A program made the position numbers and the translations under genes. The notes beneath the pieces were generated by a model, which did not search any database, was not told the origin of the DNA, and saw nothing but the letters and a program-made list of their open reading frames with translations. A DNA stretch of 64,000 bases from Escherichia coli O157:H7 (lineage in GTDB: Bacteria > Pseudomonadota > Gammaproteobacteria > Enterobacterales > Enterobacteriaceae), in the NCBI RefSeq assembly GCF_013167455.1, contig NZ_CP038328.1; one strand, given 5' to 3'. Below are positions 36,121 to 40,362 of this stretch, piece after piece (position 1 is the first letter of the stretch; each line of letters starts with the position of its first letter).

Positions 36121-36329
36121 AAGGTAATTCATGGATGGTTGAACTATATCCCTGCTTTTCAACCATCCTAAAAAAGCATGAATTGCTCGCTCTGCCCTAA
36201 GTGGCTGTGCTATTTTAGAAAAACTTAATCCTGAGTTAAGCAAAAAAAACATAATCAATAAAAATATATACGCAAAAAACATTGATTAAGTGAATATATC
36301 ATGGAAGAAAAATATAACCGGAGTAGTGT

Positions 36330-37232
36330 ATGACCAATCTCTACGACTTGAAAAAGTTCGACTTAAATCTTCTTGTCATATTTGAGTGTATTTACCAGCA
36401 TTTAAGCATTAGCAAAGCTGCTGAATCACTATATATCACCCCATCAGCCGTGAGCCAGTCGTTACAACGCTTACGTGCGCAATTTAATGACCCTTTATTC
36501 ATTCGCTCAGGAAAAGGTATCGCGCCGACGACAACAGGGTTAAATCTGCATCACCATCTTGAGAAAAATCTCAGAGGCCTTGAACAAACAATTAATATAG
36601 TCAATAAGTCCGAACTAAAGAAAAACTTTATTATTCACGGCCCTCAGCTCATTTCTTGCTCTAATAATAGTATGCTGATCCGCTGCCTACGGCAAGATTC
36701 CTCTGTCGAGATTGAGTGCCATGATATCCTCATGTCAGCAGAGAATGCTGAAGAACTGTTGGTTCACCGCAAAGCCGATCTGGTGATCACCCAAATGCCA
36801 GTGATCAGCCGTTCCGTCATTTGCATGCCATTGCATACGATTCGCAATACTCTAATTTGTAGTAATAGGCATCCACGAATTACTGACAATAGCACTTATG
36901 AACAAATTATGGCAGAAGAGTTCACCCAATTAATATCTAAATCAGCAGGGGTTGATGATATTCAAATGGAAATAGACGAGAGATTTATGAATCGCAAAAT
37001 TTCATTTCGTGGTTCCTCTTTGCTGACAATCATTAATAGCATTGCAGTTACAGATTTACTGGGAATAGTCCCCTATGAACTTTATAACTCCCACCGTGAC
37101 TTTCTTAATTTAAAAGAGATAAAACTAGAACATCCGTTACCTTCAATAAAGCTTTACATTTCCTATAATAAATCTTCTTTAAACAATCTGGTGTTCTCAC
37201 GATTTATTGACCGTCTAAATGAGTGTTTTTGA
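36330..37232 (+). CDS. ybdO: LysR-family transcriptional regulator
   Basis: 300 aa ORF; LysR HTH (LNLLVIFECIYQHLSISKAAESLYITPSAVSQSLQRLR); strongly AT-rich; paralogous to ybeF in this window. Confidence 0.85.
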   Translation: MTNLYDLKKFDLNLLVIFECIYQHLSISKAAESLYITPSAVSQSLQRLRAQFNDPLFIRSGKGIAPTTTGLNLHHHLEKNLRGLEQTINIVNKSELKKNFIIHGPQLISCSNNSMLIRCLRQDSSVEIECHDILMSAENAEELLVHRKADLVITQMPVISRSVICMPLHTIRNTLICSNRHPRITDNSTYEQIMAEEFTQLISKSAGVDDIQMEIDERFMNRKISFRGSSLLTIINSIAVTDLLGIVPYELYNSHRDFLNLKEIKLEHPLPSIKLYISYNKSSLNNLVFSRFIDRLNECF

Positions 37233-37378
37233 TATATAACCTCAGACAGCTACTATAACTTTCACCTATTTATTCACAGCGCGAATGAAAAATAAAACAC
37301 TCTGCTTTTCAGTGTTTACTTTATAATTAACAGTCTTATCTCACTGATCACCCTGTAACGTTCAGAGAGCGTCTTCAG

Positions 37379-38599
37379 ATGTCTATTTATAAAATTCCTC
37401 TTCCGCTCAATATTCTGGAAGCTGCACGAGAGCGTATTACCTGGACACTCAACACCCTACCCCGCGTTTGTGTCTCATTTTCTGGCGGCAAAGACTCTGG
37501 TTTAATGCTGCATCTGACAGCCGAACTCGCCCGACAAATGGGCAAAAAAATCTGCGTTTTGTTTATCGACTGGGAGGCGCAATTCTCTTGCACCATTAAC
37601 TATGTTCAGTCCCTGCGCGAGTTGTACACCGATGTCATCGAAGAGTTTTACTGGGTTGCGCTCCCGCTTACGACGCAAAATTCCCTTTCACAATACCAAC
37701 CCGAATGGCAGTGCTGGGAACCTGATGTCGAATGGGTACGTCAGCCCCCGCAAGATGCGATAACCGATCCTGACTTTTTCTGCTTTTACCAGCCAGGCAT
37801 GACCTTCGAACAATTTGTACGTGAGTTTGCCGAATGGTTTTCACAAAAACGTCCGGCGGCGATGATGATCGGCATCCGTGCGGATGAGTCCTACAACCGT
37901 TTTGTCGCCATCGCCAGTTTAAATAAACAACGTTTTGCCGACGATAAACCCTGGACTACGGCCGCACCAGGCGGTCATAGCTGGTACATTTACCCCATTT
38001 ACGACTGGAAAGTGGCTGATATCTGGACCTGGTATGCAAATCATCAAAGTCTCTGCAACCCACTGTATAACCTAATGTATCAGGCAGGCGTTCCTCTGCG
38101 TCATATGCGAATTTGCGAACCTTTTGGCCCGGAGCAACGACAAGGATTATGGCTCTATCACGTTATCGAACCGGATCGCTGGGCTGCTATGTGCGCACGA
38201 GTCAGCGGGGTAAAAAGTGGCGGCATTTACGCCGGACATGATAATCATTTCTATGGGCATCGGAAAATCCTCAAGCCAGAACATTTAGACTGGCAAGAAT
38301 ATGCATTATTGCTGCTCAATAGCATGCCGGAAAAAACAGCTGAGCATTACCGCAATAAAATCGCCATTTATTTGCACTGGTATCAGAAAAAAGGCATCGA
38401 GGTTCCACAAACCCAGCAAGGGGACATTGGCGCGAAAGATATCCCCTCCTGGCGGCGGATATGCAAAGTTTTACTCAATAACGATTACTGGTGTCGGGCA
38501 TTATCATTTAGTCCTACGAAAGCGAAGAACTATCAGCGTTATAACGAACGGATAAAAGGAAAACGTCAGGAATGGGGGATACTATGCAACAACGATTAA
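37379..38599 (+). CDS. ybdN: PAPS-reductase-like PP-loop ATP pyrophosphatase family protein (IbrA-like)
   Basis: 406 aa ORF; PP-loop motif SGGKDS visible (VSFSGGKDSGLMLHL). Confidence 0.85.
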   Translation: MSIYKIPLPLNILEAARERITWTLNTLPRVCVSFSGGKDSGLMLHLTAELARQMGKKICVLFIDWEAQFSCTINYVQSLRELYTDVIEEFYWVALPLTTQNSLSQYQPEWQCWEPDVEWVRQPPQDAITDPDFFCFYQPGMTFEQFVREFAEWFSQKRPAAMMIGIRADESYNRFVAIASLNKQRFADDKPWTTAAPGGHSWYIYPIYDWKVADIWTWYANHQSLCNPLYNLMYQAGVPLRHMRICEPFGPEQRQGLWLYHVIEPDRWAAMCARVSGVKSGGIYAGHDNHFYGHRKILKPEHLDWQEYALLLLNSMPEKTAEHYRNKIAIYLHWYQKKGIEVPQTQQGDIGAKDIPSWRRICKVLLNNDYWCRALSFSPTKAKNYQRYNERIKGKRQEWGILCNND

Positions 38600-39201
38600 C
38601 GCAGGATTTAACGCAATTTCTCGCCAGCTTGCCGGAAGATGATCGCATCAACGCGATTAATGAAATCCGCATGGCGATCCATCAGGTTAGCCCCTTTCGT
38701 GAAGAGCCAGTGGATTGCGTTCTGTGGGTTAAAAACAGCCAACTTATGCCTAATGATTACAACCCAAACAACGTGGCACCACCCGAAAAAAAACTGCTGA
38801 AAAAATCCATTGAAATAGATGGTTTTACCCAACCCATTGTGGTCACGCATACGGATAAAAATGCCCTGGAAATCGTGGATGGTTTTCACCGCCATGAAAT
38901 TGGTAAAGGCTCATCATCATTAAAATTACGCTTAAAAGGTTATTTGCCGGTGACCTGTCTGGAAGGTACGCGTAATCAACGCATCGCCGCGACTATTCGT
39001 CATAATCGCGCTCGTGGACGCCATCAAATCACCGCCATGTCGGAAATCGTCCGTGAACTCAGTCAGTTGGGATGGGACGATAATAAAATTGGCAAAGAGC
39101 TGGGAATGGACAGCGACGAAGTGCTGCGCCTGAAGCAAATTAACGGTCTGCAAGAGCTGTTTGCCGACCGTCAATATTCCCGCGCCTGGACTGTCAAATA
39201 A
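38572..39201 (+). CDS. ybdM: ParB/sulfiredoxin-like domain protein (IbrB-like)
   Basis: 209 aa ORF overlapping ybdN 3' end by 28 nt; ParB-type motif (IVDGFHRHEIGKG). Confidence 0.85.
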   Translation: MGDTMQQRLTQDLTQFLASLPEDDRINAINEIRMAIHQVSPFREEPVDCVLWVKNSQLMPNDYNPNNVAPPEKKLLKKSIEIDGFTQPIVVTHTDKNALEIVDGFHRHEIGKGSSSLKLRLKGYLPVTCLEGTRNQRIAATIRHNRARGRHQITAMSEIVRELSQLGWDDNKIGKELGMDSDEVLRLKQINGLQELFADRQYSRAWTVK

Positions 39202-40362
39202 CTACAGCTGGCGCAGTCGTTCAGCTGCTGCCAGCAACGTCGATTCCTTCTTGGCAAAACAGAGACGAATCAGTTTATGTGGGAAGGGATCGGCGCAAAA
39301 CACCGATAGCGGAATCGCCGCCACGCCGTGCTCCCGCGTCAGCCACTGGCAAAACTCAACATCATCCAGGGTAGAAACCGCGCTGTAATCCACCAGCAAA
39401 AAGTATGTGCCTTCGCACGGTAAAATCTCCAGCCGACTTTCATTTAAGGCATTTACCAGAATATCGCGCTTCTGGCGATAAAAGTCCGGTAACGCAAGAT
39501 AATGCTCAGGTTCTGCACGTAGCATATCCGCAATTGCCAGCTGTGCCGGGGTATTCACCGAAAAGGTCAGATACTGATGTACCTTGCGAATTTCGGCGCT
39601 GATGGGCGCTGGCGCAACACAATAACCCACTTTCCAGCCGGTCATATGATAGGTCTTGCCAAACGATGACACCGCCACCGCCCGCTCACGCAGCTGCGGA
39701 TGCGCCAGCACACTGGCATGGCCCTGTTGTGAAAAGTTGATGTGCTCGTAGACTTCATCGCTAATGACAAAAATCTCGTGCCCGGCGATCGCCTGCCACA
39801 AAGCGGCGAAATCAGCCTGCTGCCAGACAGTTGCACTGGGATTATGCGGAGTGTTGAGGATCACCAGTCTGGTGCGCTCGCTTAACAATGCGGCAAATTC
39901 CTGCCAGTCAACGCGAAAATGCGGTGGTTGCAGTGCCATACGCTTCACTATTCCCCCAGAAAGCGCGATGGCGGGGGCGTAACTGTCATAGCTGGGATCA
40001 AAACAAATCACTTCATCGCCATTGCGCACCAGTGCGGTAATCGCCGCGTATAACGCTTCCGTCGCCCCTGCCGTTACGGTGATATCGCTATCGGCATCTG
40101 GTTGATAGCCATACAAACGTTCCGTTTTCTGAGCAATCGCCTCGCGCAAGGCCTGCACGCCGGTCATGGGCGCGTATTGGTTTGCCCCCTGGGCAACGTG
40201 GTACGCCAGCCGCTCCTGTAAATAGCGCGGACCATCAAAATCAGGAAAGCCTTGCGACAGGTTAATCGCCTGGTGTTGCTGCGCCAGCGCGCTCATCTGG
40301 GTGAAAATAGTGGTGCCAAGTTGTGGAAGTTTGCTTTGTGGAATCAGAGGGTTATTTGTCAT
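39202..40362 (-). CDS. ybdL: PLP-dependent aminotransferase (methionine aminotransferase)
   Basis: 386 aa ORF; class I aminotransferase fold with PLP-lysine region (SSFGKTYHMTGWKVGY). Confidence 0.9.
   Translation of the reverse strand: MTNNPLIPQSKLPQLGTTIFTQMSALAQQHQAINLSQGFPDFDGPRYLQERLAYHVAQGANQYAPMTGVQALREAIAQKTERLYGYQPDADSDITVTAGATEALYAAITALVRNGDEVICFDPSYDSYAPAIALSGGIVKRMALQPPHFRVDWQEFAALLSERTRLVILNTPHNPSATVWQQADFAALWQAIAGHEIFVISDEVYEHINFSQQGHASVLAHPQLRERAVAVSSFGKTYHMTGWKVGYCVAPAPISAEIRKVHQYLTFSVNTPAQLAIADMLRAEPEHYLALPDFYRQKRDILVNALNESRLEILPCEGTYFLLVDYSAVSTLDDVEFCQWLTREHGVAAIPLSVFCADPFPHKLIRLCFAKKESTLLAAAERLRQL

Follow-up and report, generated by a model that had tools for sequence, protein, structure and literature searches.

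In E. coli ECOR-9, the IbrAB pair activates prophage eib genes, according to the account of Sandt 2002 given in PMC7649339. The two-gene architecture of this pair, a protein with PAPS_reduct and DUF3440 domains followed by an overlapping ParB_N protein, is also that of ybdN and ybdM, where a PAPS_reduct-DUF3440 gene adjoins a ParB_N gene; RefSeq calls the YbdM product 'IbrB-like domain-containing protein', and its naming bears out the relationship to IbrAB proposed in a first-pass annotation of this DNA. Paralogues that are 54-60% identical are found in Edwardsiella, Cedecea and Erwinia, as a second copy in Citrobacter, and on 855 plasmids. These IbrAB-type paralogues have no LysR gene and lie on mobile DNA beside adhesin, autotransporter or siderophore loci, whereas the chromosomal position of ybdNM is fixed and the pair has a LysR repressor of its own. 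The pair also resembles DndB/DndC (as well as SspD and BrxP) in combining a ParB/Srx-fold protein of the DGxHR type, the motif being DGQHR in DndB, with a PP-loop ATP pyrophosphatase of the PAPS-reductase fold. Unlike Dnd and BREX systems, ybdNM is accompanied by neither DndA, DndD, DndE nor BREX partners and lacks invariant Fe-S cysteines. YbdN scores 22.2 bits vs 290.4 for the DndC model TIGR03183, 21.8 bits with PADLOC DndC and 18.5 bits over 74 residues with PADLOC BrxP, and the neighbours of the locus are dsbG and ybdL; the likeness to DndC and BrxP put forward earlier therefore goes no further than the superfamily level (22 and 18 bits). Among the defence models of PADLOC 2.0.0, only weak DndC, BrxP and MTase_II matches were obtained.

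The window analysed here is a 64,000-nucleotide stretch of E. coli O157:H7 DNA with a GC content of 51.8%. The citR(ybdO)-ybdN-ybdM locus within it is already known in E. coli; our analysis adds the near-obligate pairing of YbdN with YbdM, the association with SNF2 helicases, and the class to which each of the two proteins belongs. The features of the locus are the following:

36121-36329, plus strand: dsbG-ybdO spacer with the ybdO promoter and H-NS upstream element (GC content; PMC4720273, PMC9068703)
36133-36168, no strand assigned: perfect 11-nt inverted repeat GGATGGTTGAA / TTCAACCATCC, just 3' of the dsbG stop (repeat search)
36330-37232, plus strand: citR (ybdO), LysR-type regulator that represses ybdNM (ORF, Pfam, NCBIfam)
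37233-37378, plus strand: citR-ybdN spacer, 35.6% GC, 68.5% identity between E. coli haplotypes
37379-38599, plus strand: ybdN, PP-loop ATP-pyrophosphatase/adenylyl-transferase-like domain (residues ~28-235) and helical DUF3440 (~237-400)
37481-37498, plus strand: PP-loop SGGKDS, YbdN S35-S40 (sequence)
38087-38599, plus strand: DUF3440 region of ybdN, all-helical (secondary structure; profile against the PDB)
38572-39201, plus strand: ybdM, N-terminal helical hairpin (1-39), ParB/sulfiredoxin fold (~46-146) and C-terminal HTH-like region (~153-196)
38572-38599, plus strand: 28-nt ybdN/ybdM overlap (ORFs, sequence)
38878-38895, plus strand: DGFHRH, YbdM 103-108, of the DGxHR type, aligning to the Noc GERR box
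38992-39024, plus strand: TIRHNRARGRH, YbdM 141-151, second invariant basic motif of a putative nucleotide/phosphate pocket

The three open reading frames have exactly the coordinates that the first-pass annotation gave them, and the 28-nt overlap it described is present with the annotated ybdM ATG at 38572; were translation to begin instead at a second in-frame ATG, which lies at 38584 behind a GGGGGA, the overlap would be 16 nt. The 28-nt arrangement is retained in syntenic enterobacterial orthologues and matches the roughly 10 of 74 genome loci that have a gap of -28 nt, the median distance from the ybdN stop to the ybdM start being -6 nt in these 74 loci. On the other side, the convergent gene ybdL adjoins the ybdM stop codon at 39202.

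The description of the locus as an AT-rich module holds in the GC profile for ybdO (38.6% GC, at the 1.9th percentile of same-size windows, z = -2.7) and for the dsbG-ybdO and ybdO-ybdN spacers (32.1% and 35.6%), but not for ybdN and ybdM, whose 47.7% and 47.0% GC (16th-18th percentile, z ~ -0.9) cannot be told apart from background. From ~36100 onward, sliding identity falls from 92-98% to 72-81%, and the 11-nt repeat, which is terminator-like, marks the left edge of this AT-rich, hyper-divergent segment. Hyper-divergent citR haplotypes were set aside as a novelty, since it has already been published that ybdO accumulates substitutions at a high rate and that SE15 differs from K-12 (PMC4720273). 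The site at which ybdO transcription starts has been placed 107 nt upstream of its ATG, H-NS URE and DRE elements have been mapped and a CitR ChIP-exo peak has been reported (PMC4720273, PMC9068703); in our conversion this start site falls at ~36223 in window coordinates, and TATTTT at 36212-36217 is its likely -10 element. The likely -10 hexamer of ybdN is TATAAT at 37322-37327, which is common to all three E. coli alleles in a spacer that is otherwise little conserved (alignment of 11 strains/species). An imperfect 18-nt inverted repeat at 37284-37328 is not conserved in the B2 allele, and no conserved operator or parS-like site was found in this spacer, which is too divergent between genera. 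A consensus promoter/terminator scan of the region gave hits no more numerous than in shuffled sequence, and a search of the region for RNA elements yielded a single sub-threshold STnc70 match, outside the locus.

YbdO carries Pfam HTH_1 (1.7e-18) and LysR_substrate (1.3e-9) domains and scores 458.7 bits vs a cutoff of 400 with the CitR equivalog model NF047710; it evolves fast, its amino acid identity to the Citrobacter protein being 58%, compared with 84% for YbdN and 77% for YbdM. Published work has established that ybdO is silenced by H-NS, that CitR/YbdO occupies its own promoter region and that ybdN rises 2^5.5-fold (~45-fold) on citR deletion, and this repression by CitR and H-NS agrees with the earlier description of the module as cryptic. 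In the ΔcitR mutant, the expression of 86 genes is altered and confirmed CitR binding is limited to citR's own locus.

YbdN has the SGGxDS motif on a Rossmann-like alpha/beta fold that characterizes the PP-loop ATP pyrophosphatase superfamily, and its Pfam match is PAPS_reduct. The SGGKDS of YbdN residues 35-40 and the DGFHRH of YbdM residues 103-108, both singled out in the first-pass annotation, lie in family-invariant columns and are therefore not chance strings: G37, K38 and S40 are invariant and S35, G36 and D39 at least 93% conserved in 59 YbdN homologues, and D103, G104 and R107 are invariant and H106 at least 90% conserved in 55 YbdM homologues. Besides the PP-loop residues, the invariant set of YbdN comprises D64, E66, S171, D214, Y230 and several tryptophans. 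In structure YbdN comes closest to adenylyl-transfer and AMP-X enzymes, with nucleic-acid PP-loop enzymes ranking next, and by its invariant residues and these matches YbdN looks like a PP-loop adenylyl-transfer enzyme. Identity to FAD synthase (a PAPS-reductase-like FMN adenylyltransferase), CysD and APS/PAPS reductases is 14-21%, and YbdN differs from all of them in its extra 170-residue helical DUF3440, its ParB-like partner and the lack of a CysH-type catalytic cysteine. Sequence searches returned no useful solved-structure relative of YbdN (best E = 0.002, a spurious tail-protein match), nor did the DUF3440 profile find one in the PDB (best E = 0.12). The DUF3440 cysteines Cys246 (in 33/59 homologues), Cys362 and Cys372 are semi-conserved, and the cysteine cluster, a candidate Fe-S site, has four semi-conserved positions of which typically three are occupied. 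No cysteine is invariant among the 59 homologues, and YbdN is therefore neither a CysH-type PAPS reductase nor DndC. An assignment as assimilatory PAPS/APS reductase was rejected, as an ECGLH-type invariant cysteine is missing and the CysH-model scores fall below the cutoffs (TIGR02057, 34.8 bits vs 254; PRK02090, 34.0 vs 154; TIGR00434, 24.9 vs 165). Sulfur donors, amidotransferases and nucleases are all missing from the conserved surroundings of the pair in bacterial and viral loci; together with the lack of an invariant cysteine, this leaves Dnd-like thiolation chemistry unsupported.

YbdM has the ParB_N core and the conserved arginine in a G-x-x-R pocket that define the ParB/sulfiredoxin fold superfamily, and the combination of this fold with an HTH is KorB-like, the HTH itself being comparable to the DNA-binding domain of KorB, to sigma region 4 and to the core of VirB. 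Within the second motif, R143, N145, R146, A147, G149 and H151 show no variation among 55 sequences, which come from phages as well as from several phyla, and identity between the E. coli protein and Bacteroides or Firmicutes homologues is 45-50%; the invariant pocket motifs and this identity across phyla argue for a universal ligand or target and not a host-specific protein. Conservation of the HTH-like region between phyla is unusually high, which fits non-specific DNA binding and a protein-protein interface equally well, whereas the N-terminal hairpin (1-39) is limited to some lineages. Compared with KorB, ParB, Noc and VirB, YbdM has DGFHR in place of GERRxR and a TIRHNRARGxH box in place of the ENLQR box. 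When YbdM is aligned to Noc, DGFHRH stands where the GERR box would be, and DGxHR is invariant in the 55 homologues; the protein ends at residue 209, soon after the HTH, with no C-terminal dimerisation domain, and no ParA-like neighbour was found in the window or in any family that recurs beside the pair in the loci studied. On these three grounds we rejected YbdM as a canonical ParB-CTPase clamp, and the parallel with ParB CTPases drawn earlier is not supported, GERRxR being absent. The phosphotransferase branch of the fold, with sulfiredoxin, SerK and SbnI, differs in other respects: the substrate of sulfiredoxin and SerK is a protein sulfinate or free serine, and both lack an HTH, whereas YbdM has a DNA-binding-type domain and a near-obligate YbdN partner. 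Long viral YbdM homologues carry a 170-residue C-terminal extension, in which a Pfam scan found nothing.

YbdN and YbdM are almost always encoded side by side, whether in bacteria of different phyla, in phages, in viral metagenome contigs or on plasmids. In 75/80 genome loci from Proteobacteria, Bacteroidota, Firmicutes, Verrucomicrobia and one Heimdallarchaeota MAG, YbdN has a YbdM-like ORF as its immediate neighbour, four of the five unpaired loci being partial or at or near contig ends, and the two are paired, in either gene order, in 73/80 IMG/VR loci; no natural fusion of the two proteins occurs among these 160 loci or 269 retrieved proteins. Both proteins have full-length PHROG matches (1e-76 and 4.5e-69), the family matched by YbdN being categorised as an auxiliary metabolic gene, and the pair is found in 224 and 226 phage records (~225 sequenced phages, both sets sharing their hosts, which are Flavobacterium, Mycobacterium, Streptococcus, Arthrobacter and Bacillus) and in 855 plasmid records, all of which supports a module of the mobile-element type. 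Of 5426 complete E. coli genomes, 5422 nonetheless have the chromosomal trio, which also keeps its ahpC-dsbG...ybdL location in Citrobacter, Enterobacter, Pseudocitrobacter, Kluyvera and Superficieibacter, and dN/dS values of 0.05 for ybdN and 0.035 for ybdM indicate purifying selection equal to that on neighbouring housekeeping genes. The supposition of horizontal acquisition thus stands in deep time but not as a recent event, given the near-universal presence of the trio in E. coli and its synteny in five other genera.

Conserved neighbours of the pair are limited to an SNF2 helicase (phrog_62, 1e-72 to 1e-102) and a small GNAT-like protein, the Pfam GNAT hint for the Bacteroidales protein being non-significant. 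The helicase is at position -1 in 16/68 bacterial loci and within a few genes, mostly at -1, in 18/80 viral loci; one viral copy is fused to a tail that is GNAT-like by motif reading. Other neighbours are DnaB, DNA polymerase, a methyltransferase and terminase. Two ideas about phage loci were discarded, namely that the pair stands in for the small terminase (Arthrobacter phage Laroye encodes a TerS of its own) and that it always directly precedes the terminase (terminases are 3/10 of the sampled large downstream genes). The large downstream genes are mixed in function and present in some loci only, so that position in the phage genome does not decide function. In all five enterobacterial plasmids sampled, a small set whose contexts are virulence regions densely packed with genes, the paralogues adjoin loci for adhesins, autotransporters, fimbriae or siderophores; the sampled Klebsiella pneumoniae plasmid with the pair also has the iro (salmochelin) siderophore locus.

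Our preferred explanation, held tentatively, is that ybdNM is an anciently domesticated, silent copy of the IbrA/IbrB type, encoding an ATP-dependent pair that would act at DNA and alter the expression of acquired genes. Under this reading, an IbrA/IbrB mobile-element module was domesticated long ago and is normally kept silent by the lineage-specific CitR repressor and H-NS. YbdN and YbdM would work as one ATP-dependent machine at DNA, with YbdM, through its ParB/sulfiredoxin-fold nucleotide pocket and HTH, providing the DNA or nucleotide handle, and YbdN, with its intact PP-loop, an adenylyl-transfer fold of the PAPS-reductase/FAD-synthase type and the helical DUF3440, carrying out a reaction of the adenylylation type on some universal target, for instance DNA or a ligand bound to it. 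Once derepressed, the pair would change how silenced genes of horizontal origin are expressed, in the way that IbrAB acts on prophage eib. Fold and context make action at nucleic acid plausible; the YbdN-YbdM complex, its DNA substrate, the reaction chemistry and gene activation as the consequence of that chemistry are what we infer. A stronger version, which we regard as doubtful, is that the pair covalently marks DNA or a universal DNA-bound target without SAM or the Dnd/Ssp sulfur machinery. It would then constitute an epigenetic switch by which phages, virulence plasmids and Enterobacteriaceae activate silenced horizontally acquired genes.

The pair could instead be a pure transcription-factor complex that leaves nucleic acid covalently unchanged, in which YbdM is a ParB/KorB/VirB-like switch activating or de-silencing promoters and the part of YbdN is confined to providing or using up YbdM's nucleotide ligand, or to structural co-activation. 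IbrAB is genetically defined as an eib co-activator pair, the KorB-like architecture and HTH of YbdM are in keeping with such a role, and so is the location of plasmid paralogues beside surface-factor loci, which are often H-NS-silenced. We nevertheless consider it unlikely: YbdM has neither the CTP motif GERRxR nor a dimerisation domain at its C-terminus, near-invariance of the HTH from E. coli to Firmicutes, Bacteroidota and phages is atypical of sequence-specific regulators, most host phyla with the pair have no H-NS, and the invariance of the YbdN catalytic residues implies real turnover chemistry. Phage anti-restriction, in which the pair marks or hypermodifies the element's own replicating DNA and the chromosomal copy is a relic, would account for its presence in or at the end of phage replication modules by SNF2, DnaB, DNA polymerase, methyltransferase and terminase genes, for phage fusions of ParB_N with a DNA methyltransferase (phrog_498, 1e-10; PADLOC MTase_II) and for its DndB/DndC-like pairing logic. 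We rate it as quite unlikely, as we know of no modified base reported for the carrier phages, the strong purifying selection on the chromosomal copy throughout Enterobacteriaceae history is not expected of a relic, and in Streptococcus phage CHPC1230 the pair lies between lysis genes and regulatory/early genes, a position that reads as moron-type and outside the replication module.

A tRNA or rRNA modification pair that boosts translation of AT-rich mobile-element genes, making eib activation post-transcriptional, is improbable indeed: the closest structural neighbours of YbdN are AMP-X and not tRNA enzymes, domain and profile searches found no RNA-binding THUMP, PUA or TilS C-domain, and the SNF2 and ParB partners indicate duplex DNA. 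Equally remote is an anti-phage/anti-plasmid defence or abortive infection module, silent until required. The pair is silenced and mobile-element-borne, with weak DndC and BrxP matches; the candidate defence operons of a 2026 preprint include YejK-like NAP operons with a PAPS reductase and a ParBc protein, and YbdM overexpression lowers growth rate by 10%. However, no PADLOC model matched above noise, the conserved partners include neither a nuclease nor any other effector, the pair abounds in lytic and temperate phage genomes themselves, and the trio is core in E. coli, not variable like defence islands. A metabolic PAPS/APS reductase or auxiliary sulfate-assimilation gene, as implied by the RefSeq product name and the PAPS_reduct match and by the published 2^1.8 to 2^3.2-fold rise of the entire cys regulon in ΔcitR, where ybdNM is derepressed, is extremely unlikely given NCBIfam CysH/PAPS-reductase scores of 25-35 bits vs cutoffs of 154-254, no invariant catalytic cysteine matching ECGLH, and an intact PP-loop, extra DUF3440 and ParB-like partner with no role in sulfate reduction.

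Few two-gene modules of mobile DNA that await characterisation are as widespread as this pair. Databases routinely label it 'PAPS reductase' and 'ParB partition protein', and the feature tests contradict both labels, the second in the sense of a canonical ParB. Identifying its substrate could uncover new nucleic-acid chemistry or a new form of counter-silencing of acquired genes. Published ybdO-deletion phenotypes have all been interpreted without regard to the ~45-fold derepression of ybdN; if the pair does mark its target covalently, the virulence, capsule, oxidative-stress and motility phenotypes would be due in part to YbdNM. For motility, Keio-collection strains are prone to secondary mutations. 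The flagellar changes in ΔcitR may also be independent of ybdNM, because a ybeF mutant in the same transcriptome study likewise alters the FlhDC regulon and lrhA.

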